Positions 8,800-25,199 of a stretch of DNA of 32,000 nt are shown here, piece by piece. Below the pieces are notes generated by a model, which searched no databases, was not told where the DNA came from, and saw only the letters and a program-made list of their open reading frames with translations. Source of the stretch: Rhodobacter capsulatus SB 1003. Lineage in GTDB: Bacteria > Pseudomonadota > Alphaproteobacteria > Rhodobacterales > Rhodobacteraceae. The stretch covers positions 2,070,001-2,102,000 of the forward strand of contig NC_014034.1 of the NCBI RefSeq assembly GCF_000021865.1. Direction: 5' to 3'. Every line of letters starts with the position of its first letter. Positions within the stretch are counted from its first letter, which is position 1. A program made the position numbers and the translations under genes.

Positions 8800-8875
8800 G
8801 GGTGATTAGCTCAGTTGGTAGAGCGCCTCGTTTACACCGAGGATGTCGGGAGTTCGAGTCTCTCATCACCCACCA
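8800..8875 (+). tRNA. tRNA-Val (anticodon TAC), CCA encoded
   Basis: Hand-folded cloverleaf. Acceptor GGGTGAT/ATCACCC, D arm GCTC-AGTTGGTA-GAGC, anticodon arm CCTCG-TTTACAC-CGAGG, variable loop ATGTC, T arm GGGAG-TTCGAGT-CTCTC, discriminator A, CCA. Total 76 nt. Confidence 0.9.
8853..8875 (+). repeat. attL core: 23-bp direct repeat (3' end of tRNA-Val)
   Basis: TTCGAGTCTCTCATCACCCACCA is repeated perfectly at 19949-19971. Confidence 0.85.
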
Positions 8876-8953
8876 CCGCAGCCCATTGTTTTCCATAAGG
8901 AATTGCCAATAAAGGCAAATCTGCGCCTCTACTGGTACATAGAGGTGGTACAT

Positions 8954-10555
8954 ATGGGACTCAAAATGCCAGCCCCGGTTCTGATCGGTTCGACCTACTA
9001 TCTGCGCGTCCATGTGCCCGCCGACGTGGCCCCGAAGGTGCGCGGCAAGAGCGTCTCGGTGCCGGTGGCTGGAATGTCCTGCGTGGTGCGGGTCAACGGC
9101 CCGGTGAAGGTATCGCTGCGCACCAAGGAGGCGAAGGAGGCCAAGGCCCGCTTTGCCGTCGCCCATGCCGCGCTGGAGGCGCATTGGGAGGCTGTCCGCA
9201 ATGGGCCACGAGCGCTGACGCACAAGCAAAGTCTAGCCCTTGCCGGGGCGCTCCGGGCGTTCTGGATCGATGCCTTCGATGAAGACCCGGGAAGCCCCAA
9301 ACGCTGGCAGAACGTGCAGGAAGTAAATGCCGCAGCCAAGGCCGGGCGACTGTCACTGCCCCTGATCGGCAAGGACGCGCAGCTTGAGGCCAGCCTGAAC
9401 GCCCGCTTTGGCCCTATCGTGGATGCGTTCCTCGCGCACAAGGGCATTCTGCTTGCGCCCGAGTCGCGGCTGCCATTGTTGCGCCACGTCGTCGATGCGA
9501 TGGACGACGCGGCGAAGGTGACCGAAGCGAAGGCGATGGGCGATTATTCCCAGCAGGGCAAGGCGGCACTCTACCCAGCGCTTGACCTTCCCGTTGCCAA
9601 GCCCTCGCCAAAGTCGGCGCCACCGTCGCCCAAGCTGACCTTCTCCGGCGTCATTGATGCATGGGTTGCGGCCAAGGCGCGGGGAAGAAATGCGGCCCCC
9701 GTACGCCCGGACACGGAACGCAAGTACCGCCGGGAATGCGCCGAGTTCGTCGCCTTCCGCGGCTCCGACGATATGACCACCGTCACCGCCCGCGAAGCCG
9801 AGGCGTGGCTGAATGCGATGCTGAGCGAGGCGAAACTGTCGAACAATTCGATCCGCCAGCGGTTGCAAAATATCCGCTCGGTGGTCGAACACGGGCGGCG
9901 GCAAAGCCTTGGCGAGTTGTTCCCGATGGGCAACCCGCTGGAGTTCGTGCAATTGCCCGAGGCGGCCCCGGTGGCGAGCGATCTGCGCACCCTGACGCTG
10001 GCCGAGGCAGAAGCAATCCTGCGCGCCGCCCGCGCCGAAACCCGGCCGGAACTGCGCTGGCTGCCGTGGCTCTGCGCCTATTCTGGCGCGCGGGTCAACG
10101 AGGTGGCGCAGCTGACGCCCGGAGACTTCTTCCAAGTCGGCGAAGACTGGTTCTATCGGCTCACGACGATGGGCGGCAAGACGCTGAAGAACCGGCACAG
10201 CGAGCGCCGAGTGCCTGTTCACCCCGATCTGGTCGCCGAGGGGCTGATCGTCTTTGTCGAGAGCCGCAGGGATCGCCCGGAGGAACGCCTGTTCCCGCGC
10301 CGGTCACAGGGGAACGTGGCAACATGGGTGCGCGAGAAAGTCGGCCTGACGCGCCCCGAACTCGCCCCGAGCCACGGCTGGCGCCACCTCTTCGAAGACA
10401 AGGCGCTGGTCGCCGGAATGCTGGACGCCGCCCGGCTCTATCTGACCGGGAGATCTGGGGGCGGCTCCGCTGCCGGGTATGGAAAGAGCGAGGTCATGCT
10501 GCCAGGGCTGGCGGCCGAGATGCGGAAGGTGGAAGGAATTCTGCATCGCCTATAG
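8954..10555 (+). CDS. Tyrosine-type site-specific integrase
   Basis: N-terminus STYYLRVHVPADV (integrase N-terminal arm-binding-type domain common in alphaproteobacteria). The C-terminal catalytic region has GARVNEV (Arg), HGWRHLF (H-x-x-R) and GYGKS (Tyr). The ATG at 8954 was chosen; the upstream part of the track ORF overlaps the tRNA. Confidence 0.85.
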   Translation: MGLKMPAPVLIGSTYYLRVHVPADVAPKVRGKSVSVPVAGMSCVVRVNGPVKVSLRTKEAKEAKARFAVAHAALEAHWEAVRNGPRALTHKQSLALAGALRAFWIDAFDEDPGSPKRWQNVQEVNAAAKAGRLSLPLIGKDAQLEASLNARFGPIVDAFLAHKGILLAPESRLPLLRHVVDAMDDAAKVTEAKAMGDYSQQGKAALYPALDLPVAKPSPKSAPPSPKLTFSGVIDAWVAAKARGRNAAPVRPDTERKYRRECAEFVAFRGSDDMTTVTAREAEAWLNAMLSEAKLSNNSIRQRLQNIRSVVEHGRRQSLGELFPMGNPLEFVQLPEAAPVASDLRTLTLAEAEAILRAARAETRPELRWLPWLCAYSGARVNEVAQLTPGDFFQVGEDWFYRLTTMGGKTLKNRHSERRVPVHPDLVAEGLIVFVESRRDRPEERLFPRRSQGNVATWVREKVGLTRPELAPSHGWRHLFEDKALVAGMLDAARLYLTGRSGGGSAAGYGKSEVMLPGLAAEMRKVEGILHRL

Positions 10556-10622
10556 AGCAAAGGCGCACATAGCGTTCCGGAGACTTCTAAATTGATCGCC
10601 CAGGGTCCAGCCTCATTGAGTT

Positions 10623-10901
10623 TCACAGCCAGAACAAGACGGTTACGGCGAGGAGGATGGCGGAGAAGAAGGTCTGTGAGCAGCGGTCGTATCGGGTTGC
10701 AACACGCCGCCAGTCCTTCAGACGACCGAACATGATTTCGATGCGGTTGCGCCGTTTGTAGCGCCTCTTGTCGTATTTCACCGCCGTCTTGCGGGAGTTC
10801 CGGCCCGGGATGCAGACCTTTATCCCCTTGTCTTTCAAAGCTTCTCTGAACCAATCGGCATCATAGCCCCGAGCGGCCAGCAGCCAGCCCGCCTTGCTCA
10901 T
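10623..10901 (-). pseudogene. IS5-family (IS427-like group) transposase, C-terminal fragment only
   Basis: LLAARGYDADWFREALKDKGIKVCIPGRNSRK...RRNRIEIMFGRLKDWRRVATRYDR is the conserved C-terminal third of DDE_Tnp_1 IS5-type transposases. The N-terminal ~160 aa are missing. A possible outer end, GGAGACTTCTAAATTGATC, starts at 10579 but has no partner inverted repeat. Confidence 0.75.
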
Positions 10902-11049
10902 CGATCAGATCTCCTTGCGCAGCCTGAATCACGCCAAATGCCTGAAATCAATGGGTCTGAACCCTAACAACCTCCCTGCCCGCCAAAAGGCGGACAAGGA
11001 GATGCAAGATCACCTAAATAGGTGTTCCTTCTACATGGGCGTTTGGCGC

Positions 11050-11922
11050 TCAGAACTGCGGATCGGGGTCGTCGTCTTCCACGTCCTCGGCCGCCTCGTC
11101 ACCGCCCGACCGCGCCAACTCCAGCCACTCGTTCGCCTCCTCCTCGCCACCGAGCAGGTAATCGAGCATCTGCTTCAGCGCGTTGTCGCCAAGCGCTTCG
11201 CCGATCGCCTCCCAGATGGCCTGTTGTTCGCGCAGGATGGGCCGTTCGGGATGCTTGCGACGGTCGAGAAGTTCACGAATGTCCCCCGCCAGTTTCCCGA
11301 TCTCGGCCTTGCGCTGGGCGTCCGTCATCTGCCCAAGCCCGGCGTCATTTGCATCATCCCGCGTCCGGCGATCTCGCGCCCAAGACCCGGTGATCTCGAT
11401 GCCTTCCTCCTGCATCACCCGGAACCGCGCCCGCATGTTGTCCACCGTTGCCCGCGCCACATCGGCCCAAGCGGCGATCTCTCGGACCTTGTAGCGGCGC
11501 GGCACAGGCTCGCGCACAAGCCGCCATGCTGCATCCATCCGCTCGGCCTGAGAAAGCCCCCTTGTGCGCTTCGCATTGGCCCGCAGCGCCGCGCCGAGGG
11601 CATCCCGGCGATCCGTCCCGACAAGGACAATGGCCGGGATCGGTTGCGACCACTTCACCGCGCGATAGGCCGCAAGGCGGTGCGCCCCGTCGAGCAGGAT
11701 CAGCTTGCCCGATGCCCCGATCTCGCCCGGCCCGGCTCGCCACAACAGCACCGGATCGAGCGGCGCACCCGTGTTTCGGATCGTGCTCGCAAGGTCCGCC
11801 TTATGGGTCGCGTCGATGCCATCCGCCCGGAATTTGAAGTCGGCGCTTTCGGCAATCTGGTCGAGGGTCACCTCCATGGTGACGGAACCCGGTTTCGCCG
11901 TGATCGGTTGCATCGACGTCAT
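11050..11922 (-). CDS. ParB N-terminal (ParB/Srx fold) domain protein with HTH and an acidic C-terminal tail
   Basis: KLILLDGAHRLAAYRAV (DGxHR motif) followed by IPAIVL. HTH-like YKVREIAAWADVARATVDNM. Tail EEEANEWLELARSGGDEAAEDVEDDDPDPQF. The ATG at 11922 overlaps the RNase HI stop (ATGA). Confidence 0.7.
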   Translation of the reverse strand: MTSMQPITAKPGSVTMEVTLDQIAESADFKFRADGIDATHKADLASTIRNTGAPLDPVLLWRAGPGEIGASGKLILLDGAHRLAAYRAVKWSQPIPAIVLVGTDRRDALGAALRANAKRTRGLSQAERMDAAWRLVREPVPRRYKVREIAAWADVARATVDNMRARFRVMQEEGIEITGSWARDRRTRDDANDAGLGQMTDAQRKAEIGKLAGDIRELLDRRKHPERPILREQQAIWEAIGEALGDNALKQMLDYLLGGEEEANEWLELARSGGDEAAEDVEDDDPDPQF

Positions 11923-12461
11923 GCCAGTTCTCCTTCCATTACTTCGATCACACGCGGTTTTCGTTGCGCCCGCCCCTTCGCGGCAAGCTGGTCGGCTTCG
12001 GCGTTCATCCGGTCGTCGGAATGGCCGCGCACCCACTCGAAAGTGACGTCGAGGCCATCGCACAGCTCAACGATCTCTCTCCAAAGCGCGACGTTTTCGG
12101 GTTCCTTGCCGTCAGCTTTGCGCCAGCCCTTGGTGATCCAGCCGGGCAACCACTCGTTCTTGCCGTCGATCAGATACTTGCTATCGCTGCGGATGAAGGC
12201 GGGCATTTTCTCGCCTTTCCGGATCAACTTGAGCGCCTCGACCGCTGCGCGCATCTCCATCTCGTTGTTGGTCGTCTGTTGCTTGCAGCCGTAGATATGT
12301 GCGCGCTTGATCTCTCGGCCATCACGGTAGCGGCACAGGATGGCCGCATAGCCGCCCCGTCCGGGGTTCGGTTGGCAGGAGCCGTCGGTGTAGACAATGA
12401 TGCAGGTCGGAAGGGGCAGCGCGGCCCCGGTCGTTTCGTTGCTCAAAGGTTCGTCCTTCAT
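11919..12461 (-). CDS. rnhA: Ribonuclease HI (island-encoded copy)
   Basis: RNase H type 1 motifs in order: VYTDGSC (Asp), TNNEMEMRAAVEAL (Glu), IRSDSKYLI (Asp), WVRGHSDDRMNAEADQLA (His, Asp). It has an ~20-aa N-terminal extension. Confidence 0.85.
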   Translation of the reverse strand: MKDEPLSNETTGAALPLPTCIIVYTDGSCQPNPGRGGYAAILCRYRDGREIKRAHIYGCKQQTTNNEMEMRAAVEALKLIRKGEKMPAFIRSDSKYLIDGKNEWLPGWITKGWRKADGKEPENVALWREIVELCDGLDVTFEWVRGHSDDRMNAEADQLAAKGRAQRKPRVIEVMEGELA

Positions 12462-13117
12462 TGCAGGTTGGAGATTGCGGTGGCGAGCCGCTGTTTCGTC
12501 TCGGTCGCGGCCTTGCGGTCGCGCGCGTCGAGGTCTGCCAGACGCAGCCCGATGGCGCCGAAAGCGGTCATCAGCTTGCGCCCAAGGAGAGCCGCCGCCT
12601 TGGGCGTCATCTCGCGGTAGATGCGGACCTGCTGGCCCGTCCGGTGATCGTAGCGCAGCCCGACATGGCGGCTCGACAAGGCCCGGACGCGCCGGGCGAT
12701 CTGGACGCGCAAGGCGTCATCGGTGCGAAACCGCCGCGGCCGGTCGCGCCACATCAGCACCATCGCCAGAACCGTCGCGATCACCGTGGCCGGTGAAACG
12801 TCCTGCGCGATGGACACGATCTCGTTGGCGGCGCTGCGCTCATAACGGTTGCCGATGCGGCGACTGGAGGCGGCCCCGGCCTCGGCGACAATGCTGGCCC
12901 AGATCTCCTCCGTCAGGGGCCAGGTCTCGTTGCTGGGGTTTCTGGCAATCCGCGCTTCGATCCGCGCAAGATAAGGCGCCAGTTCGGTTTTGGTGACGCC
13001 GCTCTGATCGGGCGCACCGTGCCGCCGAAGCGTGCTCTTGTGGCGGCGGCAATGAGGTGAAAAGTCGGATGCGGCGGGGCTGCCGCAGTTCGGAACGGTG
13101 CAGATGCGCGCGGTCAT
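12458..13117 (-). CDS. Hypothetical protein with an N-terminal Cys/His zinc-finger-like motif
   Basis: C6-X4-C11-X11-C23-X2-H26 followed by RRHG, resembling the short zinc knuckle at the N-terminus of many phage HNH-type or DNA-binding proteins. The rest is helical with no family I recognise. It has ATGA overlaps at both ends. Confidence 0.55.
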   Translation of the reverse strand: MTARICTVPNCGSPAASDFSPHCRRHKSTLRRHGAPDQSGVTKTELAPYLARIEARIARNPSNETWPLTEEIWASIVAEAGAASSRRIGNRYERSAANEIVSIAQDVSPATVIATVLAMVLMWRDRPRRFRTDDALRVQIARRVRALSSRHVGLRYDHRTGQQVRIYREMTPKAAALLGRKLMTAFGAIGLRLADLDARDRKAATETKQRLATAISNLQ

Positions 13118-13251
13118 GGCGTGACCTTGCGGCTGCCGGGTCGAGAGGTGGTGTCGTGGTTCAGGTGGTTCTCCTTGGATTTGTAGCCGCCCCCAGAGAG
13201 ACAGGGACGGTTGGTGATGCGATTGTGGCGGGTTTGGGATGTGGGTTCCAT
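13114..13251 (-). CDS. Possible 45-aa leader or small protein, MEPTSQTRHNRITNRPCLSGGGYKSKENHLNHDTTSRPGSRKVTP
   Basis: Hand-translated and below the track cutoff. A consensus AGGAGG lies 6 nt upstream of the ATG at 13251. Its stop TGA overlaps the ATG of the next gene (ATGA at 13117-13114). Confidence 0.3.
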   Translation of the reverse strand: MEPTSQTRHNRITNRPCLSGGGYKSKENHLNHDTTSRPGSRKVTP

Positions 13252-13257
13252 GATGTG

Positions 13258-13275
13258 CCTCCTGTGCTGAGGAGG
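13258..13275 (-). promoter_or_regulatory. Hairpin that would sequester the SD of the 45-aa ORF
   Basis: On the minus-strand RNA, CCUCCU-CAGCAC-AGGAGG forms a 6-bp stem with a 6-nt loop. The 3' arm is the Shine-Dalgarno sequence. Confidence 0.3.
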
Positions 13276-13731
13276 ACGCGGCACATCGGGCGCGCTCGAC
13301 GGTGGTTTCGCCCCTGCCGGGGCATCATCAGCGGGACGGCCTCAGTCCCGGACCTCGCTGAAACCGCTTTCGCGGCTTGCCCTTCACGCATTGGATTGCG
13401 ACCATCGGGCCAGAGACATCCACCTCCGTCTATTGTGCGGTGGCCCCGTGACGTGGGTCAGACGCGCCAGCCATCCGGGCCGACCTCGGCCGCCACGAAG
13501 GCGGAAAGAGCGGTGCCCGACGCGGGCAACCCGGCGGGCGATGGGGAGTTTGAAGCTGTGCCGAGGGCCGCAGCACTGCCCGGAAAACAGGCTGGCTACG
13601 GGAAGAGCCGCTGCACGATGGGCAGGGCTGGTTGAGGTTCGGTCCTTGCGGTCGGCCTGTTCCTGACGGAAGGGGCCGTGGGGGTTCACCGGGCAGAATA
13701 AGCCCGGGGATGGTGCTTATGACTCAGGATT

Positions 13732-13741
13732 CGCGATCGCG
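13732..13741. promoter_or_regulatory. Perfect 10-bp palindrome CGCGATCGCG in an AT-rich patch (candidate operator/promoter zone of the minus-strand operon)
   Basis: It lies within the only AT-rich stretch (about 13700-13810) between hsdR and the operon. On the minus strand, TTGCGC-N17-CATAAG overlaps it. Confidence 0.25.
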
Positions 13742-13913
13742 CAAGAACTATTTTCAAACGAAATCATTGCGTTGACGCACAAAGTAGAAAATCTGCTGCG
13801 AAAATACCCGATAGCTCTTTGGCATCATGGGGTTGGCCGGTGGAGCCGCTGCGCCTGTGCCCGGATTTGTGCCCGGCGTTCACATACCATGGCAGGAGCG
13901 AAAGGGGGCACGA

Positions 13914-16229
13914 TCACTGCCGATAGAGATTGCGCTGCACTTTTATGAAAGCCTCACGAATCGTCAGCACATCACCAAGAACGGCTTTCGCATCCGCAAC
14001 GGAACCGTAGCGGCTAACAAGGAAGTTGCCCAACTTGCCCACCGCCAGTTCGCCCTCGCCATGCGCCTCGTAGGCTTGCAGGATGCCTAGCAGGAACTCC
14101 TTCATCTTGGCATCTGCCTCAGCAAGCCCCTCGGTGCGGGCGGCTTCGGCTCGTTCGGAGCGGGTCTTGGGCGGCACCGTGAACCGGATATAGGCAAGCA
14201 CATCGAACAGATCGCTGTCGGGGGCGTCGATCAGGCGGCGCATGTCCGCCATCTTGTCGGCGTCATAGCCCCGCTGCTCCAGCACGGCGATGAAATGTTC
14301 CCGGCGCTCGGGGTCGCTCCACTGGCGGCGCAGATCGTCCTCGTCCACCACCAGCGCCACCAGATCGCCGAACAGCCGATCAAGGAACTCTTGCGCCGAC
14401 ATCGGCTTGCCGTCCGGTCCCCAATAGGTCGTCGAACCGATGTAGAGGATCTTGCGAGCCTTGCCGTCCGCCAGTTTGATTTCCAGTTTCACCTTCGGCT
14501 CGACCTCACCCCCGCCTTCCGGGGGCGGTGCGGGCGGGTCTGTCGGATCGGGCTTGGGCACCTTCGGTCCCGGCGGATCACTCTCGGGTGGCAGCGGTTC
14601 GCCATCCCACTCCGGGTCGTTGAAATGCTCGTGCGCCCGCACGAAATCGTAGATCGTGAAATAGTCCTTGCCGTCATAGGTCCGGGTTCCCCGTCCGATG
14701 ATCTGCTTGAACTCGATCATCGAGCGGATCGGGCGCATCAGCACGATGTTGCGCACATTCCGGGCATCGACGCCGGTCGAGAGTTTCTGCGAGGTGGTCA
14801 GGATCGTCGGCACAATCTTGTCGTTGTCCTGAAAATCCCGCAGGTGCTGCTCGCCCAACTTGCCATCATCGGCGGTGACTCGGTGGCAATAGTTCGGGCT
14901 GGTGCTCACCTTGATCTGGTTGATGTGGTCCCGCACCCGCAGCGCATGGTCCTGCGTGGCGCAAAAAACCAAGGTTTTCTGCCGCTGATCGATCTGCGCC
15001 ATGAACTCGGCAACCCGGCTGCGCTCTCGCTCGTCGATCACGATCTTGGTGTTGAAATCGGCTTCGGTGTAGCGGTCCTTGTCGATCTCGCCCGCCACGA
15101 TCTCGTCGGTGCCATCCCAGACATATTCGTCCAGCGTGCTTGCCATCTGGCGCACCTTGAACGGCGTCAGGAAGCCGTCCTCGATCCCCTCCCGCAGCGA
15201 GTAGACGAAAACCGGATCGCCGAAATAGGCATAGGTGTCGGCGTTATGCTTGCGCTTCGGCGTGGCGGTCAGCCCCAACTGCACGGCGGGGGCGAAATAC
15301 TCCAGAATGCCCCGCCAGTTGCCCTCGTCATTCGCCCCGCCCCGGTGGCATTCGTCGATGATGATGAAGTCGAAGAAATCCGGCGCATAGCCCTCATAAC
15401 TGGGCTGACCGTCGCCGGTCATGAATGTCTGAAAGATCGTGAAGAAGATCGAGGCGTTCTTCGGCACCTTGCCCCGCTTGCGGATCGTGTCGGGGTCGAT
15501 GCGGGTGATCGCATCCGCCGGAAAGGCGGAAAAAGCATTGTAAGCCTGATCCGCCAGAATGTTGCGATCCGCCAGAAACAGCACCCGGGGGCGGCGCTTC
15601 GGCTCGCCTGACAGGTTCCAGCGGGCGTGAAACAGTTTCCATGCGATCTGAAAGGCGATCGAGGTCTTGCCCGTGCCCGTTGCCAGCGTCAGCAGGATGC
15701 GCTTGTCGCCCTGTCCCACCGCCTCCAGCACGGCGTTGATGGCGTGGTGCTGGTAATAGCGCAACTGCCACTTGCCGCCCGCCACCTCGAAGGGTACCTC
15801 GCCAAAGCGGTCCCGCCACAGGCTCACCTCGCCGAAACACCGATCCCAGAGCGCATCGGGCGTGGGAAAGGGCACCACATTGCCCTCTGCCCCGCTGGAC
15901 ATGTCGGCTTCATACCAGCCCAGCCCGTTCGTGGCATAGCAAAGCCGGGCTTTCAGCCGCCCGGCGTAATCCTTTGCCTGAGCCAGCCCGGTGGTATGCG
16001 CCAGCCCCGCCCGTTTCGCTTCGATCACCGCCAGAATCTGATCCCGATAGGTCAGGACATAATCAGCGGAAAGGCTTGGAGCTTTGTTGCCGCCGGGCAG
16101 GATGCGCCCCGGGGTGATCGAAAACTCTCGCCGGATTTTCGCCCCGGGAACCGTCGTCCACCCCGACGCCACAAGGACCGGATCGATCCGGTTGGCACGG
16201 GTGTCGGCTTCGGTCTCGTTCTCAAACAT
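13914..16229 (-). CDS. hsdR: Type I restriction enzyme, R subunit (EcoEI-type C-terminal domain)
   Basis: N-terminal nuclease-type domain (ADYVL...AVIEAK). SF2 helicase motifs (LATGTGKT, IIIDECHRG, TATP, QIIGRGTR). Pro-rich linker, then a C-terminal domain like EcoEI R (EFLDRLFGDL..., DLFDVLAYI). The ATG at 16229 was chosen (MFENETEADTRANRIDP). Confidence 0.9.
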   Translation of the reverse strand: MFENETEADTRANRIDPVLVASGWTTVPGAKIRREFSITPGRILPGGNKAPSLSADYVLTYRDQILAVIEAKRAGLAHTTGLAQAKDYAGRLKARLCYATNGLGWYEADMSSGAEGNVVPFPTPDALWDRCFGEVSLWRDRFGEVPFEVAGGKWQLRYYQHHAINAVLEAVGQGDKRILLTLATGTGKTSIAFQIAWKLFHARWNLSGEPKRRPRVLFLADRNILADQAYNAFSAFPADAITRIDPDTIRKRGKVPKNASIFFTIFQTFMTGDGQPSYEGYAPDFFDFIIIDECHRGGANDEGNWRGILEYFAPAVQLGLTATPKRKHNADTYAYFGDPVFVYSLREGIEDGFLTPFKVRQMASTLDEYVWDGTDEIVAGEIDKDRYTEADFNTKIVIDERERSRVAEFMAQIDQRQKTLVFCATQDHALRVRDHINQIKVSTSPNYCHRVTADDGKLGEQHLRDFQDNDKIVPTILTTSQKLSTGVDARNVRNIVLMRPIRSMIEFKQIIGRGTRTYDGKDYFTIYDFVRAHEHFNDPEWDGEPLPPESDPPGPKVPKPDPTDPPAPPPEGGGEVEPKVKLEIKLADGKARKILYIGSTTYWGPDGKPMSAQEFLDRLFGDLVALVVDEDDLRRQWSDPERREHFIAVLEQRGYDADKMADMRRLIDAPDSDLFDVLAYIRFTVPPKTRSERAEAARTEGLAEADAKMKEFLLGILQAYEAHGEGELAVGKLGNFLVSRYGSVADAKAVLGDVLTIREAFIKVQRNLYRQ

Positions 16230-16243
16230 GGGGAGAGTGTAGG

Positions 16244-17449
16244 TCAGCCCAACTCGCCTGAAAAGGCTTTTTGCAGAAGGGATTGCCGCAGGGAGGTGAG
16301 GTCGGCAAGGGTCGTGGTGAAATGCTTCTCGAGAGAAGACACATGGTTCCGAGCCTCTCGCATCTTCGCTGTGACGGCTTCTTGTCGGGACAAGTCGTGC
16401 GGCATCCGCACCTTTAGTGCACTCCACTTGGATTTGTTTATGATGGGCAATGTTGCCTGACCAGCATTTTGAATAACTTCCCTCTGGAAAGACTTGCTCA
16501 GCATTTGCAGATAGACGAACTCTCCGCAAATACCGACACTTGGAACGAGAGCATTTATTTGCTGGTTGGTGGCAATACTTCGATCCGAGAATCCCGCTTT
16601 CCCGATGGTTGCGCCAATGCAAACCATCAAGGCACTCCCCGGAGGCAAAATCCGAGAGGACGCCGCTCCCTTTTCGCTTAGACCTTCACTTTCATAGTTC
16701 AGTCGCCCATCGGGAAGAAAGTCTCCCGGCTTTATAAAAGGAATGAAGGTGCCAGTGTTGCCGGTTTCGGAAGTTCGGGGTGTTGAGCCGGTAACGGTTT
16801 GTCCAATATCGGACAAAGAACATTCTCGCCAATCGGTAGAGTTTTTTTCCAGTTCCTCTCGCAAAGTCGCCTCGAACAACTCCCTTGCATCGGCGAGGTT
16901 GGCCTCGGCGTTGGCACGGGCACGGTCGAGCCCCTCGAAGGTTTCATCCAGAATCGCAATGATCCGTTTCTGTTCGTCCAGAGGTGGGAGGGGGATGGGG
17001 AGTTTGCCAAGATTTGTTCGGCTGATCCTCTGTCGAGTCGTGCCTGTGCAAGCATCAGCGACAGCAGTCAGATAACTCTGCGACATCGAAAAATATATGA
17101 AAAACTCGGGAAGTAAAACATCTCGATCAAAGCGAATGATAGTGCAGTCCACCGCAGTGATCATCTTTTCGCCAGTGTCGGGAATAATGCAGGAACGCCC
17201 GACCGGATCAGGGAGCCGTGAAACAAGGCAGTCTCCGGGAAACACTTCTGTGCACCTAAGGCGCTCGAATGTTGCATCATCAATATATCGAGATTTTTCA
17301 CATCTATTTTTGAAAAAGCCCGTGCCAATATTTCCCGTCTGTATGAGGCGAATGCCGGAATCAGACTGGTCTTTAGTCTCAACCCAGTTGCCATCAGTAA
17401 TCGTCAAAGCCAGCGAGTGGAGCGGCTTGACCTGCCATCCCGCCTTCAC
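16244..17449 (-). CDS. hsdS: Type I R-M specificity subunit with two target-recognition domains
   Basis: Two TRD halves separated by the conserved spacer LPPLDEQKRIIAILDE...ANLADARELFEA. C-terminal conserved helix LRQSLLQKAFSGEL. The GTG start at 17449 overlaps the hsdM stop (GTGA). Markedly AT-richer than its neighbours. Confidence 0.9.
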   Translation of the reverse strand: MKAGWQVKPLHSLALTITDGNWVETKDQSDSGIRLIQTGNIGTGFFKNRCEKSRYIDDATFERLRCTEVFPGDCLVSRLPDPVGRSCIIPDTGEKMITAVDCTIIRFDRDVLLPEFFIYFSMSQSYLTAVADACTGTTRQRISRTNLGKLPIPLPPLDEQKRIIAILDETFEGLDRARANAEANLADARELFEATLREELEKNSTDWRECSLSDIGQTVTGSTPRTSETGNTGTFIPFIKPGDFLPDGRLNYESEGLSEKGAASSRILPPGSALMVCIGATIGKAGFSDRSIATNQQINALVPSVGICGEFVYLQMLSKSFQREVIQNAGQATLPIINKSKWSALKVRMPHDLSRQEAVTAKMREARNHVSSLEKHFTTTLADLTSLRQSLLQKAFSGELG

Positions 17450-18894
17450 AGCAGCCCCCGGATGCGCTCAAGGATCTCTGCCGTCTCGGCATCCCGGGCA
17501 AGGATCGCCTCGATGATCTCTTCGGGGGCCCGCAGCGTCTCTGCCTCGGGGGCGTTCGGGTTTTTGACCGACAGATCGCAGGTGCTGGCATCCACCGCCG
17601 TGCGCTCGACGACCCACGCCTTTGCCCCGGTGGCGAAGGTGCGTTGCATCTCGACAAACTCTGCCATGTCGTCGTCGTTCAGCGCATTCGTCTTGCCCAG
17701 ACTGCGCCCGGGATCGAGTTGGTAAAACCAGATGCGCTCGGTCGGTGCGCCCTTCTCGAAGAACAGCACGACGGTTTTCACGCCAGCGCCCTGAAAGGTG
17801 CCCTGCGGGCAATCCAGCACGGTATGCAGGTTGCAGGTGTCCAGCAGTTCCCGGCGCAGCGCCACGCTGGCGTTGTCGGTGTTGCTCAGGAAGGTGTTCT
17901 TGATCACCACCGCCGCCCGACCGCCCGCCCGCAGTTTGCGGATGAAGTGTTGCAAGAACAGATAGGCGGTCTCGCCCGATTTGATCGGAAAGTTCTGCTG
18001 CACCTCCCGCCGCTCGCCGCCGCCAAAGGGCGGGTTGGCAAGGACGATGTCGTGGCGGTCCTTTTCCTGAATATCGAGCACATTCTCGTTGAGCGAGTTG
18101 GTGTGGACGATGTTGGGCGCCTCGATCCCGTGCAGCACCATGTTCATGATGCCGATGACATAGGCGAGGGACTTTTTCTCCTGCCCATAGAAGGTGCGCC
18201 GTTGCAGGGTTTCGTAGTCGCTTGCCGAAAGGTCGGGGCGGCGCAGATAGTCATACGCCTCGCACAAGAACCCGGCGGAACCCACGGCGCCATCATAGAT
18301 CGTCTCGCCGATCTGCGGATCGACGACGGCAATCATCGCCCGGATCAGCGGGCGGGGGGTGTAGTATTCGCCGCCGTTGCGCCCGGCATTGCCCATGCGG
18401 CGGATGCGGGTTTCATAAAGCGCCGAGAGTTCGTGCTTGTCGGCTTGGGTCTTGAAGGCGAGCCCGTCGACGATTTCCAGCACATCCCGCAGGATATAAC
18501 CCGAACGGAACTTGGACCGCAGTTCGGTGAAAACCTCGCCGATCTTGTATTCGATCGTGTCGGGACCGGTGGCACGGTCGTGGAACAGCGCCAGATGCGG
18601 GAACAGTTCGCCATCGACGAAGCGCACCAGATCATCGCCGGTCATGGCGGTGTCGTGGTCAAACACGCCGTTCTTCTTTGGCGCCGCCCAACGGTCCCAG
18701 CGATAGCGCCCGTCAATGATGGGGGCATAGGTCTTGCCTTCCAACTCGGCCCGATCCCGCCGCTCGCCCTCAAGGTCGTGCAGGTATTTCAGGAACAGCA
18801 CCCACGAGGTCTGCTCGACATAGTCGAGTTCGTTGGAGATACCTTCCTCGGCACGAAGGGCTTTTTCGATGGCGTTGAAGGCGTTCTCATACAT
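17446..18894 (-). CDS. hsdM: Type I R-M N6-adenine DNA methyltransferase subunit
   Basis: HsdM N-terminal domain (ELDYVEQTSWVLFLKYL), AdoMet motif I (IYDGAVGSAGFL), motif IV (LANPPFGG). The ATG at 18894 was chosen (MYENAFNAIEKAL). Confidence 0.9.
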   Translation of the reverse strand: MYENAFNAIEKALRAEEGISNELDYVEQTSWVLFLKYLHDLEGERRDRAELEGKTYAPIIDGRYRWDRWAAPKKNGVFDHDTAMTGDDLVRFVDGELFPHLALFHDRATGPDTIEYKIGEVFTELRSKFRSGYILRDVLEIVDGLAFKTQADKHELSALYETRIRRMGNAGRNGGEYYTPRPLIRAMIAVVDPQIGETIYDGAVGSAGFLCEAYDYLRRPDLSASDYETLQRRTFYGQEKKSLAYVIGIMNMVLHGIEAPNIVHTNSLNENVLDIQEKDRHDIVLANPPFGGGERREVQQNFPIKSGETAYLFLQHFIRKLRAGGRAAVVIKNTFLSNTDNASVALRRELLDTCNLHTVLDCPQGTFQGAGVKTVVLFFEKGAPTERIWFYQLDPGRSLGKTNALNDDDMAEFVEMQRTFATGAKAWVVERTAVDASTCDLSVKNPNAPEAETLRAPEEIIEAILARDAETAEILERIRGLL

Positions 18895-18962
18895 CTGCTC
18901 AGTCCTGTGCGCTTTTGGCCCTTCTTTCAGAACGAAATCGCACGGGCAAGGGCAGGAAGCCG

Positions 18963-19556
18963 TCACATCGACGCGGGCAACGTGACATCGCTGGCCCCGT
19001 TTTTCGCCTCCTCCAGGATGCGATAGACGCTGGCCCGGCCGATGCCGAGCCGCTTGGCGATCTCGGTGCCGCCGATGCCTTCCGCTTGCAGCCGCAGCAC
19101 CTCTTCGGCCTTGGCGCGGGCGGTGGGGGCGCGGCCCTTGTATTTGCCCTCGGCCTTCGCCTTGGCGATGCCTTCGCGCTGCCGCTCCAGCATGATCTCG
19201 CGCTCGAACTCGGCCACGCCGCCAAGGATCGTCAGCATCAGCTTGCCGGTGGGCGTCGCGGTGTCGATGCCCATGGACAGGATGCGCAGCGCCACGCCCT
19301 TCGCCTCAAGCTGCCCCAGAATGCCCACCAGATGCGCCACAGAGCGCGCCAGACGGTCAAGTTTGGTGACGACGAGCGTATCCCCATCCCGCGCGAAGGC
19401 CAGCGCCTCGGCCAGCTGCGCGCGGCTCACGACGTCGACCGAGGAAACCTGCTCAACAAAGATCCTCTCGCAGCCGACGGCCTCAAGATCGCGCCGCTGG
19501 GCATCGAGCCCAGCTTTCTGGTCGAGGGTCGAGGTGCGGGCATATCCGATCAGCAT
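18963..19556 (-). CDS. Small serine recombinase (resolvase/invertase family)
   Basis: MLIGYARTSTLDQ (catalytic Ser), VVTKLDRLARS, GGVAEFEREIMLERQREGI, C-terminal HTH (IAKRLGIGRASVYRIL). GGAGG lies 6 nt upstream of the ATG at 19556. Confidence 0.9.
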   Translation of the reverse strand: MLIGYARTSTLDQKAGLDAQRRDLEAVGCERIFVEQVSSVDVVSRAQLAEALAFARDGDTLVVTKLDRLARSVAHLVGILGQLEAKGVALRILSMGIDTATPTGKLMLTILGGVAEFEREIMLERQREGIAKAKAEGKYKGRAPTARAKAEEVLRLQAEGIGGTEIAKRLGIGRASVYRILEEAKNGASDVTLPASM

Positions 19557-19570
19557 GGCGGGCCTCCAAT

Positions 19571-19638
19571 TGTCTCACTAACTCTTAGACATAGATGGCG
19601 GATCTGTCCCAAAATGCAAGATGTATTTCATTGGAACA
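19571..19638. promoter_or_regulatory. Candidate res-like / autoregulatory binding sites for the serine recombinase
   Basis: There are two inverted-repeat sites directly upstream of the recombinase gene. The first is TGTCT-N11-AGACA (19571-19591, 21 bp). The second is TGTCCC-N22-GGAACA (19605-19638, 34 bp, one mismatch between arms). A weak minus-strand promoter overlaps them: TTGCAT at 19619-19614 and, after a 17-nt spacer, ATCTAT at 19596-19591. Confidence 0.3.
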
Positions 19639-19948
19639 GTATTCAGGAGACCTTGAGACGCCTCACTAGACCATGCCCTGCGAGACGCACCCACGATGGA
19701 GAACGCGGGCCGTGCTGATCGTGCCGGTGGTTCTGGCGAGCATCGCTAACCGGGAAAGCTCAAGCAAACGCGGCCCCCACCGGGGGGAACCGCGCCGCAT
19801 CCGCCGTCGAGGGCTGACCTCTCAGATTTTTGGGCCAAAATCCTAGGACAGACCTTTGACGACTGGTACATAGACATGATACATCTGCGCCATCCAAGGC
19901 GCAGAAAACTCCTTGTAAATCAATGCCGCGGCGGCGATGGGCGCAGAC

Positions 19949-19971
19949 TTCGAGTCTCTCATCACCCACCA
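19949..19971 (+). repeat. attR core: 23-bp direct repeat of the tRNA-Val 3' end
   Basis: Identical to 8853-8875. The sequence upstream of it is unrelated to the tRNA, so it is a duplicated fragment and not a gene. Confidence 0.85.
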
Positions 19972-19996
19972 GAAATCCCGCAAGATCGCATCTACG

Positions 19997-20031
19997 CCAA
20001 AGGCGCCCCGGTCGGACCGGGGCGCCTTTGG
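19997..20031. terminator. Bidirectional intrinsic terminator (ancestral tRNA-Val terminator and terminator of the WecA-like gene)
   Basis: Perfect 15-bp stem CCAAAGGCGCCCCGG / CCGGGGCGCCTTTGG with a 5-nt loop, whose outer base pairs supply an AAA/TTT tract. It lies 26 nt right of attR and 22 nt past the stop at 20054. Confidence 0.6.
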
Positions 20032-20053
20032 ATCAGCAAGCAGCGACCGGGGA

Positions 20054-21151
20054 TCAGGCTTCCGACATCGCCCTCGGGCGCAGCGCAAGGGTGATCCCGC
20101 CCAGCAGCGCCACCTTGCGGTAGATCACCAGATACACCACCGTCACCAGCGCGATCGCCACCAGAAGCAGCGGCGTGCTCTCCCGGAACAGCACCATCAA
20201 CACCGTGGACAGGAACGGCAGCCCCATCACCACCAGCCCCGACAGCGCGTTGCGCAACTGCGGCGCGCCCAGAATCCCGGCCAGCCGACGCGCCCGCGAC
20301 CGATAGATCAGGCTGTGCAGATGCAGCCGGTCCGCCTGCCCGGGGTTCGTGCCCGCGCGCACCAGACGGCGGTGGATCGAAACCATCGTCTCGGTCACCG
20401 GATAGGACAGCGCCAGCAGCCCGACCAGCGGCGAGACCTCCGGGTTTCGGGCAGGCAGCGCCACCGCAAGCGCTGCCAGCATGAACCCCGTCGCATAGGC
20501 CCCGGCATCGCCCAGAAAGATCCGCCCCATCGGGAAGTTCATCAGGAAAAAGCCGCCAAGCGCCCCGGCCAGCACCAGGCTGATCCCGAGAAGCTGCTGA
20601 TCCCCGACCTGCGCCGCAACCACCCCGAACCCCGCCAGAATGATGATCGAGGTGCCCGAGGCCAGACCGTTCACCCCGTCGATCAGGTTGATCGCATTGG
20701 CCACCCCCCCCACCGCGAAGGCGGTGAACGGAATGGCGAAAGCGGCGAAGGCGAAGATCAGATCCAGACCGGGAAGGCCGACCTGCGCCACATGATAGCC
20801 CGAGGCGACACAGAAGATCAGGCCCGAGCAGATCGTCGCCAAGAGCCGGGTTTTCACCCCCACCCGCTTCGTCACATCCTCGATCAGGCCGAAGACAAGC
20901 GCGGGCAGCGCCGACAGCGACATCACCCACCACAGCGCGCGCGTCCCTTCGGGCAGCAGCAGCCCGCCCGCGACCGCCCCGGCACAAAGCGCCACCCCAC
21001 CGACCCTTGGCGTCGGGGCATGGTGCAATTTTTGCACGCCACTGTGGCTGTCATGGGTCAGATGCCCATGAAACCGCTGCGTGAGGATGATCGCCAAAGC
21101 CACGAAAAGACTGACGACCAGAGACAAGGAAAAAGCAGCCGAGTGGATCAT
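20054..21151 (-). CDS. Polyprenyl-phosphate N-acetylhexosamine-1-phosphate transferase (MraY/WecA family, initiating transferase)
   Basis: Multi-TM protein with VANAINLIDGVNGLASG and FLGDAGAY motifs typical of WecA/WbpL-type enzymes. The ATG at 21151 is preferred (AGGTGG upstream); the track ORF starts at a GTG at 21157. Confidence 0.85.
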   Translation of the reverse strand: MIHSAAFSLSLVVSLFVALAIILTQRFHGHLTHDSHSGVQKLHHAPTPRVGGVALCAGAVAGGLLLPEGTRALWWVMSLSALPALVFGLIEDVTKRVGVKTRLLATICSGLIFCVASGYHVAQVGLPGLDLIFAFAAFAIPFTAFAVGGVANAINLIDGVNGLASGTSIIILAGFGVVAAQVGDQQLLGISLVLAGALGGFFLMNFPMGRIFLGDAGAYATGFMLAALAVALPARNPEVSPLVGLLALSYPVTETMVSIHRRLVRAGTNPGQADRLHLHSLIYRSRARRLAGILGAPQLRNALSGLVVMGLPFLSTVLMVLFRESTPLLLVAIALVTVVYLVIYRKVALLGGITLALRPRAMSEA

Positions 21152-21512
21152 CACCACCTACCCGAAGTTGTGAACTGTATTTGAAGGAATGAGAAACAGC
21201 AGCACCATTAACACTTCATTCATCTTAAGGTAGATTGACGCCTTGTCCTAGAGGCTTTCACTCGGGGATTGCTGCAATGCCGCAATTTTGCGCAGACCGG
21301 CGCAAGGCCATGACAGAGTTGAACATCGCCGGGCAGCAGAATGGTTAATCGTTCCGACGCGCACCCAAAAGCGCCCGTCGCGCGGCGCGCTGACCGGGGA
21401 AAGACCGGGGCAAGGACCGGCGGGCGGCCGAATCACCTGCCCGGATCAGCTGTCCGGCGCGCGGATCGGCGCCCCGGTTCCGCGGCGGCGCCCCGGTCCG
21501 GCCCGGTCGCGC

Positions 21513-22022
21513 TCAGGCGCGGTGACATTCCGGAACGCCCAGATCGATGAGCTGCGCCCCCGAGATCGTGCGCAGGCCCACGCTGTACCGGCCCTCGCGC
21601 AGGTACCAGTCGCGCAGGGCGGGCGGATAATGCGCCGCGATCACCCGCGACCAGAAGTCGAATTCCTCGGGGGCAAGCGCGAGGCCGAAATAGCTGGGGC
21701 GATGGAAGCCGAACTGGCTGTTGCGGTTGATGCAGCTGCCGGGCAGGCCCAGATACATGGTGCAGGCGGAATAGCAGGCGCCGCGGATCTCGACGGTCTG
21801 GCCCGCGGCGGCCATGGCGCGGATGCGGTTGGCAAAGGCGCCGACATCGCCGCCCAGATCATTGCGCACGATGATCGGCGCAGGCGGCTGCCCCCCCGTC
21901 ACAAGGTCCTGCGCCGCCGCGCCCGAAAGGCCGAACGGCGCCGCGCCGCCCAGCCCCGCGCCAAAGGCCATCACCAGCGCAAAGCGCCGCCCCGCCCGCA
22001 GGCGGGCGAAAAAATCCGTCAT
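21513..22022 (-). CDS. Secreted hypothetical protein (signal peptide, four Cys)
   Basis: The ATG at 22022 gives MTDFFARLRAGRRFALVMAFGAGLGGAAPFGLSGAAAQD, which looks like a signal peptide. The mature part has conserved-looking Cys residues (RGACYSACTMYLGLPGSC). I cannot name a family securely. Confidence 0.5.
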   Translation of the reverse strand: MTDFFARLRAGRRFALVMAFGAGLGGAAPFGLSGAAAQDLVTGGQPPAPIIVRNDLGGDVGAFANRIRAMAAAGQTVEIRGACYSACTMYLGLPGSCINRNSQFGFHRPSYFGLALAPEEFDFWSRVIAAHYPPALRDWYLREGRYSVGLRTISGAQLIDLGVPECHRA

Positions 22023-22243
22023 CACGATCACCCCAAGTCCCGGCATGCCAAGGCACGCCCCCCCGGACGCCTCGCCAGCGCCCAAGACCACTAGAGCGCC
22101 GCGGGTTTAACAAAGCCTTAGCTTCCTCCCGACCCGGCCGGACCGAATGGCTAAACTTCGAGGCAAAGCCGACACCCCCATCGCCTTGCTCGACAGCGCC
22201 GCGCCCGGACCTTAGAACGGGGCCAAACCCCAAGAGGACAGTG

Positions 22244-23644
22244 ATGCCCCCCAAATTCGGAACCAGCGGCCTGCGCGGACGTGTCGTCGATCTGACGCCC
22301 GGGCTGATCGGCGCCCATGTCGCGGCCTTCCTGACCGCCTGCCCGACCGGCACCGGCCTGTTCGTCGGCCAGGATCTGCGCCCCTCCTCGGGCCGGATCG
22401 CGGCGGAGGTGATCGCGACGGCGCGCGCGGCGGGGCTTGCGGTCCGCGATTGCGGCGCGCTGCCCACGCCCGCGCTGGCGATGGCGGCGATGGCTTCGGG
22501 CGCGGCGGCGGTGATGGTCACTGGCAGCCACATCCCGGCCGACCGCAACGGGCTGAAATTCTACACCCCCACCGGCGAAATCACCAAGACGGACGAGGCG
22601 GCGATCCTGGCCGCGCTGGGCACCCCGGTCCCGCCGCGACCCGAGGGGCAGCTGACCCCCGCCCCGGCAGTGGCCGGGGCCTATGTCGCCCGTTACGTCA
22701 CCGCCTTTGGTCCCGCGGCGCTTTCGGGGCTGCGGCTCGGGCTTTATGAACATTCCTCGGTGGCGCGCGATCTGCTGCACGCGATCCTGCAGGGGCTTGG
22801 CGCGAAGGTGCTGCGGCTGGCGCGCTCCGACAGCTTCATCCCCGTCGATACCGAGGCGGTCGATCCCGCAACCCGCGCGACGCTGGCCGCCTGGTGCCGC
22901 GACCACGATCTGGCGGCGGTGCTTTCGACCGATGGCGACGCCGACCGGCCGATGCTGACCGACGGCACCGGGCAGGTGATCGCGGGCGATCTGCTGGGCG
23001 TGCTGACGGCGCGGGCGCTGGGCGCGCGGGTGATCTGCACCCCGGTCTCGTCGAATTCGCTGCTCGACCAGCTTCCCGATTTCGACGCCGTCACCCGCAC
23101 GAAGATCGGCTCGCCCTTTGTCATCGCCGCGATGGAGGCGGCGCGGGCACAAGATCCCGCTGCGAAAATCGTGGGATTCGAGGCGAATGGCGGCTTTCTG
23201 CTTGGCTTTGACGCGGCGGGTCCGGCCGGTCCGCTGCCCGCCCTGCGCACCCGCGATGCGGTGCTGCCGCTGCTCGCCCCGCTTGTCGCCGCCCGGCGCG
23301 CGGGGCAAAGCCTGGCCGCGCTTTGCGCCGCCCTGCCCGCCCGGGTGACCGCCTCGGACCGGCTGACCGACATGCCGACCGAGGCCAGCGCCGCCTTTCT
23401 GGCGCATCTGTCGCAAGAGGGCGCCGCCCGCGCGGCTTTTCTTGCCCGCTTCGGCACCGAGACCGCGCTGGACCGCACCGACGGGCTGCGGATCGGGCTG
23501 CAGGACGGGCGGGTGCTGCATCTGCGCCCCTCGGGCAATGCGCCCGAATTCCGTCTTTACACCGAAGCCGCCACCGCCGCCGCGGCGCAGGAGTTGCTGG
23601 CCGACGCGATGGCAGCGGTGGCCGCGGCGCTGGGCCGGAATTAA
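22244..23644 (+). CDS. manB: Phosphomannomutase/phosphoglucomutase (alpha-D-phosphohexomutase family)
   Basis: N-terminus KFGTSGLRG, phosphoserine loop TGSHIPADRNGLKFY, metal loop STDGDADRP, C-terminal RPSGNAPEFRLY. ATG at 22244 with GAGGA upstream. The symbol is inferred from the adjacent manC. Confidence 0.8.
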   Translation: MPPKFGTSGLRGRVVDLTPGLIGAHVAAFLTACPTGTGLFVGQDLRPSSGRIAAEVIATARAAGLAVRDCGALPTPALAMAAMASGAAAVMVTGSHIPADRNGLKFYTPTGEITKTDEAAILAALGTPVPPRPEGQLTPAPAVAGAYVARYVTAFGPAALSGLRLGLYEHSSVARDLLHAILQGLGAKVLRLARSDSFIPVDTEAVDPATRATLAAWCRDHDLAAVLSTDGDADRPMLTDGTGQVIAGDLLGVLTARALGARVICTPVSSNSLLDQLPDFDAVTRTKIGSPFVIAAMEAARAQDPAAKIVGFEANGGFLLGFDAAGPAGPLPALRTRDAVLPLLAPLVAARRAGQSLAALCAALPARVTASDRLTDMPTEASAAFLAHLSQEGAARAAFLARFGTETALDRTDGLRIGLQDGRVLHLRPSGNAPEFRLYTEAATAAAAQELLADAMAAVAAALGRN

Positions 23645-23688
23645 GGAATTGCGGCCGCGCCGCCTTCGTGCTTGCCTTGCACGGTCCA

Positions 23689-23748
23689 GACTTGCACCGT
23701 CACGACTTGCGCCTTCACGACTTGCGCCGTCACGACGTTCACCATCCC
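23689..23748 (+). repeat. Tandem 15-bp repeat, 3 good copies plus 1 degenerate, in the manB-manC intergenic region
   Basis: GACTTGCACCGTCAC / GACTTGCGCCTTCAC / GACTTGCGCCGTCAC / GACGTTCACCATCCC, followed by a G7 run (23749-23755) and the manC ATG at 23762. Confidence 0.8.
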
Positions 23749-23761
23749 GGGGGGGCAGCCG

Positions 23762-25195: not shown

Positions 25196-25199
25196 GAGC

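Follow-up and report, generated by a model that had tools for sequence, protein, structure and literature searches.

P4-like satellites and phage-inducible chromosomal islands (PICIs) are small integrative elements that reportedly carry hotspots of defence cargo. Here we describe a locus that resembles them in part, found in a 32,000-nt stretch of the Rhodobacter capsulatus SB 1003 genome (NC_014034.1, positions 2,070,001 to 2,102,000 of the forward strand; hereafter the window, with coordinates counted from its first letter). The locus is an 11.1-kb island at a tRNA-Val gene (8876–19971) whose ends are 26-nt direct repeats (8850–8875 and 19946–19971). It carries a minus-strand operon of four open reading frames (ORFs), which were annotated as a 45-aa peptide, a 219-aa protein with a Zn knuckle (p219), an RNase HI and a ParB-like protein, next to a type I restriction–modification (R-M) system, hsdMSR. 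The four genes look like the core operon of a small tRNA-integrating mobile island and not like a defence system.

Like satellites, the islands of this group are short (5–11 kb), have a tRNA-adjacent integrase and a conserved core operon, and hold R-M or abortive-infection (Abi) genes as cargo in fixed slots; one relative encodes a replication-type VapE/DUF5906 NTPase, and the leader of the operon has a motif in common with phage early leaders. Unlike in PICIs and P4, no capsid-remodelling, packaging, primase or AlpA genes were found in the island; an integrase is present. The core is also unlike that of described satellite families, in that it comprises p219, RNase HI, a ParB/Srx-fold protein with an acidic tail ending in Phe, and a small serine recombinase.

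The island backbone and its cargo slots

One backbone recurs in about 20 loci of Rhodobacterales and Rhizobiales. It consists of a small serine recombinase, a cargo slot, a long leader, p219, RNase HI and/or a ParB-like or other DNA-processing gene, a tyrosine integrase and a tRNA. Of 17 p219 loci from these two orders, 16 encode the small serine recombinase; the recombinase is also present in two islands that lack p219 (L063 and L064). A tRNA, of type Thr, Arg, Val, Ala, Leu or Gly, lies just beyond the integrase in 17 of the 21 related loci scanned. RNase H follows p219 in 14 of the 17 loci, and the ParB-like gene is present in seven, as well as in a metagenomic relative (L018).

The cargo slot lies between the recombinase and the operon. 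Three relatives (four loci, L019 being a duplicate of L007) have the same type I R-M there, R. capsulatus SP18 has a type ISP enzyme, and in three others the slot is empty. Since the slot content varies from type I R-M to type ISP enzyme to no cargo at all while the operon stays on the backbone, hsdMSR is best read as cargo and not as a partner of the operon, and we hold with high confidence that the operon belongs to the backbone and the R-M to the cargo. A second slot, before the integrase, contains a C5 methylase and a 281-aa gene in R. viridis (L067, 10075–12062) and an insertion sequence (IS) fragment in the window.

A preliminary description of this DNA had placed the operon in an integrase-bounded island beside hsdMSR and proposed a candidate undescribed defence, anti-defence or addiction system in that context. 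The island itself is borne out by the tRNA-Val gene, the 26-nt repeats, the DUF6538-type integrase and the presence of hsdR, hsdS and hsdM, with a tyrosine integrase adjoining the tRNA and the last 26 nt of the tRNA repeated at the far boundary. A system tied to hsdMSR finds no support: the R-M slot is variable and the operon is always on the backbone. Read along the minus strand from attR, the island consists of the small serine recombinase, hsdM, hsdS, hsdR, 660 nt of non-coding DNA, the operon, an IS5-family fragment and, on the opposite strand, the integrase. Its features outside the operon are as follows.

8800–8875, plus strand: tRNA-Val(TAC), called by ARAGORN and by the Rfam tRNA model (70.5 bits); its 3' 26 nt (8850–8875) form attL, direct repeat D1
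8931–8956 and 19862–19887, strand not set: arm-type 26-nt direct repeat, each copy containing 2 x GGTACATA (repeat family D2, 85% identity)
8954–10555, plus strand: tyrosine integrase with a DUF6538 N-terminal domain (Pfam PF20172, 7.8e-10; Phage_int_SAM_4)
10623–10901, minus strand: C-terminal fragment (92 aa) of an IS5-family DDE transposase (Pfam DDE_Tnp_1_2, 4.3e-15)
13914–18894, minus strand: type I R-M, with hsdR at 13914–16229, hsdS at 16244–17449 and hsdM from 17446 to about 18894 (Pfam; start positions)
18963–19556, minus strand: small serine recombinase (resolvase plus HTH_7; Pfam, 1e-42)
19946–19971, strand not set: attR, matching the tRNA-Val 3' end at 25 of 26 positions (repeat family D1)

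The integrase frame is open from 8843, and the Met positions make 8954 or 8966 its likely start. The D2 repeats, located about 56–60 nt inside both island ends on the attL and attR sides, are likely candidate arm sites of the integrase. The slot that separates the ParB-like gene from the integrase is taken up by the IS5 fragment. An apparent ATGA overlap between the resolvase and hsdM was rejected as an artefact of ORF calling: it hinges on a GTG start, and hsdM probably begins at 18894. By ORF listing and Pfam, the island contains no primase, helicase, terminase or capsid gene, and no Xis/AlpA-type gene was seen in it. A literature search on DUF6538 returned nothing relevant.

Just outside attR, a GC-rich palindrome, AAAGGCGCCCCGGTCCGACCGGGGCGCCTTTGG, occupies 19999–20035 and gives a weak, sub-threshold match to Rfam sX6 (23 bits); it is probably the terminator of a flanking host gene. 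Three long ORFs (19937–21184, 21288–22094 and 22151–25264) have no Pfam match, and in such high-GC DNA their frames may be wrong.

Operon architecture and encoded proteins

The operon features, in transcription order, are listed below; all are on the minus strand.

13187–13210, minus strand: hairpin CCGUCCCUGU..GGGGCGG, directly upstream of the Shine–Dalgarno sequence and kept in the Rhizobiales loci too
13114–13164, minus strand: 16-codon upstream open reading frame (uORF) starting at CTG 13164, with AGGAGA at 13175–13170, 5 nt before the start, and a TGA that overlaps the p219 ATG
12458–13117, minus strand: p219, with a Zn knuckle, a helical bundle, an Arg-rich helix (133–145), a beta-hairpin (152–167) and a long C-terminal helix
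11919–12461, minus strand: RNase HI, 180 aa (PF00075, 1.7e-33), with a complete active site and basic protrusion
11050–11922, minus strand: ParB/Srx-fold and helix-turn-helix (HTH) protein, 290 aa, with DGAHR in place of GERR and the acidic C-terminal tail EDDDPDPQF

The four annotated ORFs, 13251–13114 (45 aa), 13117–12458 (219 aa), 12461–11919 (180 aa) and 11922–11050 (290 aa), are joined by three ATGA stop/start overlaps at 13117/13114, 12461/12458 and 11922/11919, as had been reported, and their reading as one co-expressed unit is judged correct. The first ORF needs revision. Both the 45-aa frame and the AGGAGG that had been noted with it exist in the window, whereas its ATG (13251) lacks conservation: the two closest relatives, whose 219-aa protein is 95% identical, do not have it, and a deletion has removed the region in two others. 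What all eight Rhodobacterales loci have is AGGAGA, 5 nt, CTG, 16 codons and a TGA overlapping the p219 ATG, with a variable peptide sequence; this uORF is the conserved portion of the 45-aa ORF. Because the ATG is unconserved and the shared CTG layout comes with a variable peptide, a coupling uORF is preferred over a functional 45-aa product; a conserved 45-aa peptide was ruled out on the same grounds. From sequence comparison, the ORF is better read as a conserved 16-codon CUG uORF.

The preliminary description had let its proposal stand or fall in part with the conservation of p219, RNase HI and the ParB-like gene as a unit, and gene neighbourhoods gave a mixed answer: the three genes do occur together, and the association is a mosaic, which counts in part against that proposal. 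The combinations found are p219 with RNase H and the ParB-like gene; p219 with RNase H and an HNH/NinG-like gene; p219 with the ParB-like gene; p219 with VapE/DUF5906; RNase H with the ParB-like gene in the absence of p219; and the ParB-like gene alone. The triad is not an obligate unit, because related loci carry these varied combinations. Alternatives at the third position are an HNH/NinG-like protein, a phrog_4756 protein and, only in a distant relative (L003), the VapE/DUF5906 NTPase. A search seeded with the ParB-like protein added one island with RNase H and ParB-like but no p219, and another with the ParB-like gene alone.

When the window is compared with R. viridis, identity at the nucleotide and amino acid levels is 94% and 95% for p219, and 67% and 49% for rnh. 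The modules have therefore been reshuffled, as judged from the 94% against 67% nucleotide identity. For window positions 11919–12461 against L004 (10657–11196), RNase H is 49% identical in protein (67% in nucleotides) between two islands with 90% identical integrases and 95% identical p219, indicating an internal module swap. A metagenome pattern scan yielded three loci, of which one, L020, was discarded as a chance match inside a gene. When IMG/VR was scanned for p219, the sole match was the R. capsulatus DSM 1710 island itself.

The C-X4-C-X11-C-X2-H knuckle that had been described in p219 corresponds to C6-X4-C11-X11-C23-X2-H26 and is conserved across 32 homologues, in which C11, C23 and H26 are invariant and C6 is kept in at least 90%. 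Its AlphaFold2 model is confident (pLDDT 92.6). No match to p219 was found in Pfam, NCBIfam, PHROGs or PADLOC; its profile matched no PDB sequence, and in Foldseek the model had no hit with E below 0.09 in either PDB or BFVD. Homologues form 79 clusters at 90% identity, and a full profile search at 50% identity returned 939 representative clusters, single-domain throughout and about 220 aa long. On the model, p219 is a member of a large uncharacterised family with a confidently predicted but unmatched fold; it probably binds nucleic acid and has a coiled-coil tail. The statement that no named system has this architecture holds up with regard to PADLOC, in which none of the four ORFs had a match (PADLOC-DB v2, E ≤ 0.1), and to p219, which falls in no Pfam or NCBIfam family.

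The RNase HI was correctly described as complete: its TDGS, NNxME, SDS, GHS and AD motifs align with those of E. coli RNase HI, and alignments with PDB chains of E. coli and other enzymes show that the D-E-D-(H)-D residues and the basic handle W..W..GW.KA.GK..N are kept. It scores 116.2 bits against PF00075 (gathering cut-off 25.8), and 143.1 bits against the housekeeping rnhA equivalog NF001236 of NCBIfam, below the cut-off of 160. The best PHROG is the phage RNase H phrog_531 (2.2e-45). By these sequence matches, the enzyme is active-looking and is placed in a lineage typical of mobile genetic elements (MGEs) and phages.

The elements reported for the ParB-like protein, namely the ParB/Srx fold, the HTH, DGAHR and the acidic tail, are all present. 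Single-sequence scans of Pfam, PHROGs and NCBIfam gave weak matches; a profile of its 30-member family matched sulfiredoxin, ParB, Spo0J and Noc in PDB at about 1e-6. The AlphaFold model (pLDDT 81.5) matched the N-terminal domain plus HTH of KorB, ParB and Noc in Foldseek at about 1e-6 over 160–220 columns, the best match being the RK2 repressor KorB. The protein thus has a ParB/Srx N-terminal fold followed by an HTH, as in the ParB/KorB/Noc clamps and, for the N-terminal domain, in sulfiredoxin. Unlike ParB, KorB and Noc, it has DGAHR for GERRxR, is without a ParA or KorA partner and ends in a helical region with the acidic tail. In 30 homologues D78, G79 and R82 of the DGAHR motif are invariant, and H81 nearly so.

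An acidic run with a terminal Phe ends 93 of 97 ParB-like homologues (for example DDDPDPQF, DEPEPAF, DDVNF and EDLPF), and the four exceptions look truncated or extended. In sequence, the tail resembles the C-terminal tip of SSB (the protein that binds single-stranded DNA), DDDIPF, with which it has the acidic character and the C-terminal Phe in common. Unlike SSB, it sits on a ParB/HTH protein of the dsDNA-binding type and not on an OB-fold ssDNA binder. T7 gp2.5 and gp4 also have acidic tails, to which this one may be likened. A literature search for a ParB with an SSB-type tail returned nothing relevant. In E. coli, RNase HI is bound and localised by the SSB tip (Petzold 2015; Wolak 2020; both reviewed in PMC11253446), and by analogy the ParB-like tail might recruit RNase HI or other SSB-interacting proteins. 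In distant ParB-like genes, ATGA coupling is to a gene for a large serine recombinase. One such gene, in Bradyrhizobium (L065, 6388–8903), has an acidic-Phe end and an ATGA overlap with a 538-aa large serine recombinase.

The leader RNA and the hammerhead candidate

Upstream of the uORF lies a long leader, whose features are as follows.

13854–13874, minus strand: tandem repeat GGGCACA-N5-GGGCACA upstream of the promoter, a candidate operator
13715–13747, minus strand: promoter-like TTCTTGCG..N..GTCATAAG, proposed from a conserved AT-rich block in alignment A4
13286–13691, minus strand: structured leader of about 400 nt, defined from alignments A4–A6, RNAalifold and pair counts; no Rfam family
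13382–13406, minus strand: core of the leader 5' domain, GAUGGU-CGCA-AUCCAA-UGCG-UGAAG (25 nt)
13301–13358, minus strand: type III hammerhead candidate at the 3' end of the leader, with a predicted cut between 13351 and 13350

A hammerhead candidate in the leader had escaped the preliminary description. Its layout is stem III, GUC, a stem I hairpin, CUGAUGA plus an extra U, a stem II hairpin, GAAA and again stem III, and local folds yield the hammerhead three-way junction. In all nine aligned copies, which come from Rhodobacterales, Rhizobiales and an unrelated island (L040), the core CUGANGA...GAAA and the NUH triplet are invariant; the L018 element has three core changes and was treated as degenerate. 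Over the 17 stem pairs of the nine copies, 93.3% of positions are paired, compared with 37–53% in slid controls. Compensatory changes occur in 10 of the 17 pairs, compared with one to four in the controls, and all three stems covary; none of 500 shuffles reached the observed value on any hammerhead measure. A covariance model built from the Rhodobacterales leaders recovers the element upstream of p219 in Allorhizobium and in Rhizobium cremeum, and cross-matches a canonical Rfam Hammerhead_3 in two viral contigs.

These two canonical elements (40.8 bits, E 1.7e-5; L043, 5808–5868, and L061, 8257–8317) are intergenic and lie about 1 kb downstream of the leader motif. By eye, L050 has a type I hammerhead-like arrangement with the same extra U on the minus strand, about 150–230 nt downstream of its core motif (2725–2749); it reads CUGAUGA+U, GCUGG/CCAGC, GAAAC, a hairpin and GUC, and has no Rfam match at E ≤ 1. 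RNAalifold had proposed long-range pairs of CGUC with GAUG of CUGAUGA and of GGGCC with GGUCC, which never covary and break in L040 and L001. The hammerhead is preferred over them because its stems covary and those pairs do not.

The candidate resembles RF00008 type III hammerheads in its GUC triplet, its CUGANGA and GAAA cores and its three covarying stems. It departs from them by a U or A inserted between A9 and stem II, by sub-threshold scores and by its place within the 3' end of a leader about 400 nt long. Such differences stand against the assignment: every copy has the extra nucleotide after A9, the L040 copy reaches 24.1 bits where RF00008 requires 48.5, no Rfam hammerhead appears in the window at E ≤ 10, and about half of the p219 loci lack the element or have a degenerate form of it. 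The CChMVd(+) hammerhead also has an extra core nucleotide. A natural hammerhead that is active despite such an insertion in its core is documented (De la Pena and Flores 2001, cited in PMC2632901 and PMC3705267).

The leader is better conserved than the genes. In comparisons with more distant relatives, nucleotide identity is 84–86% for the leader, 75–76% for p219 and 61–68% for rnh. The RNAalifold structure has 93 pairs, with compensatory changes in 11 and many invariant G-U pairs on the sense strand; a hand-curated structure of nine sequences is 94.6% paired, against 37–45% in slid controls. Rfam scans of the leader and of the viral-contig leaders found no leader family.

The core motif, as GAUGGU-NNNA-AUCCAA-UNNN-UGAAG, recurs in the leaders of 11 IMG/VR viral contigs, where it is positioned after promoter-like sequences and before the first ORF. 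There its 4-bp stem covaries (CGCA/UGCG, UGCA/UGCA, GCCA/UGGC and GGCA/UGCC). None of the 11 contigs encodes p219, RNase H or the ParB-like protein. By sequence, the 5' domain of the leader is an unclassified element shared with phage leaders.

A sigma-70 scan made no call in the promoter-like block at 13715–13747. The upstream tandem repeat takes the form of two GGTCACA copies in Rhizobiales (L002, about 9083–9104; L012, about 9411–9440), and apart from the tandem pair the window shows no excess of GGKCACA. With regard to a parS centromere for the ParB-like protein, these GGGCACA copies are the only candidate repeats that turned up.

Possible roles of the operon

The explanation we put forward, to which we give as much belief as doubt, is that of a translationally coupled island core operon, with hsdMSR as exchangeable cargo, whose products process or replicate the island DNA after excision. 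The DNA-processing flavour of the operon follows from the intact RNase HI, the VapE, HNH, NinG and phrog_4756 alternatives, the KorB/ParB/Noc-like N-terminal domain with HTH and the acidic-Phe tails. The specific replication or processing mechanism is more tentative, and we lean slightly against it as drawn here. Transcription most likely starts near 13710 and gives a structured leader of about 545 nt with the candidate hammerhead in its 3' part. The hammerhead would cut the leader at 13351/13350, leaving a leader RNA of about 360 nt and an mRNA with a 5'-OH end. There is strong support for translation entering through the 16-codon CUG uORF and passing by ATGA coupling to p219, RNase HI and the ParB-like protein. 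After excision, these products might act on the circular element, either processing or replicating it: p219 and the ParB-like protein would bind island DNA, the tail of the latter may recruit SSB-interacting host proteins or the island RNase HI, and RNase HI could trim R-loops or RNA primers in the manner of ColE1.

ColE1 primers are processed by RNase HI (PMC11253446). A long structured RNA beside an RNase HI, as with RNA II of ColE1, is common to both, and the likeness is purely an analogy. Unlike ColE1, the island encodes its own RNase HI, the RNA is an mRNA leader bearing a predicted ribozyme, and neither an origin nor an RNA I-like antisense RNA was identified.

Several results weigh against this explanation. 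The island yielded no iterons and no DnaA boxes, and neither a helicase nor a primase. The ParB-like protein has DGAHR where the CTP-binding motif GERRxR would be expected, and no ParA-like ORF occurs in the island or the related loci. Because p219 has no relative of known function, its description as DNA-binding rests on the model topology and conserved arginines. By tblastn, p219 and the ParB-like protein had no match in 50,697 phage records; among 72,556 plasmid records p219 had a single match, on a megaplasmid, and the ParB-like protein none. Being absent from phage and nearly absent from plasmid records, they do not form a recognised replicon module. Because the modules form a mosaic, no single mechanism need involve all three proteins. 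The variable cargo slot, the mosaic triad and the constant backbone position favour the replication/partition module that the preliminary description had offered as a mundane alternative, here as a putative island-maintenance or replication module; no ParA accompanies it.

An establishment or anti-defence role is an unlikely alternative, in which RNase HI would destroy the RNA of RNA:DNA hybrids used by host immunity and the ParB-like protein, as a mimic of the SSB tip, would divert SSB-interacting enzymes. The targets would be, for example, RNA-guided DNA-targeting Argonautes (known in Rhodobacter), R-loops and retron or DRT products. Such a role would suit an operon that is the first expressed unit of an element trafficking defence cargo, and it could draw on the near-universal acidic-Phe tail and on the phage type of the RNase H (phrog_531). 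RNase H alleles are also swapped much faster than p219 (49% against 95% amino acid identity between the window and R. viridis), but ordinary MGE mosaicism also accounts for this. No homology to a known anti-defence protein turned up, with no anti-defence hidden Markov model set having been searched, and a literature search brought up no earlier case of RNase H acting against Argonaute or CRISPR.

We consider regulation or excision control equally improbable. Here p219 would be a transcription factor or a recombination directionality factor (RDF) for the DUF6538 integrase, the ParB-like protein a KorB-like spreading repressor and RNase HI an accessory. That KorB, a repressor, is the best Foldseek match fits well, as do the missing Xis/AlpA-type gene, the conserved tandem GGGCACA repeats upstream of the promoter and the position of p219 as the most constant partner of the integrase and resolvase. 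Yet some islands do without p219 (L063 and L064) or without the ParB-like gene, a 219-aa Zn-knuckle protein is unlike known RDFs, and both RNase HI and the SSB-like tail would be left unexplained. The least likely rival, very improbable in our judgement, is the one that the preliminary description preferred, a stand-alone undescribed defence, abortive-infection or addiction system beside hsdMSR. The operon does adjoin an R-M in the window, Abi, HipAB and R-M genes lie near it in related islands, and an unnamed architecture with no PADLOC match is compatible with novelty; however, it is the defence genes that vary while the operon sits on the conserved backbone, the triad does not stay together, and the minimal 5-kb islands are almost nothing but operon and recombinases.

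A bolder form of the core-operon explanation, which we regard as quite unlikely, is that operon and leader make up a self-contained device for RNA-primed replication or establishment, or that RNase HI and the tail neutralise RNA-guided DNA-targeting immunity. In the former case the leader of about 360 nt, freed by the hammerhead, would serve as pre-primer or as a trans-acting RNA, the RNA:DNA hybrid would be processed by the island's RNase HI, p219 with its new fold would load or recognise the hybrid, and the ParB/Srx protein would join the host replisome through its mimicry of the SSB tip. Either reading, if true, would represent a new kind of MGE module.

Together, our results define an undescribed family of very small alphaproteobacterial tRNA islands between whose fixed cargo slots R-M systems are shuttled, and it is because of this shuttling that the operon adjoins hsdMSR without being part of it. 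The SSB-tip-like tail of a ParB/Srx protein, encoded beside an RNase HI, suggests a new route by which mobile DNA may enter the host SSB interactome. The islands also offer tractable unknowns: a protein family with an unmatched fold (the 939 clusters of p219), the SSB-like tail on a ParB/Srx protein and a hammerhead variant in a leader with a phage motif.

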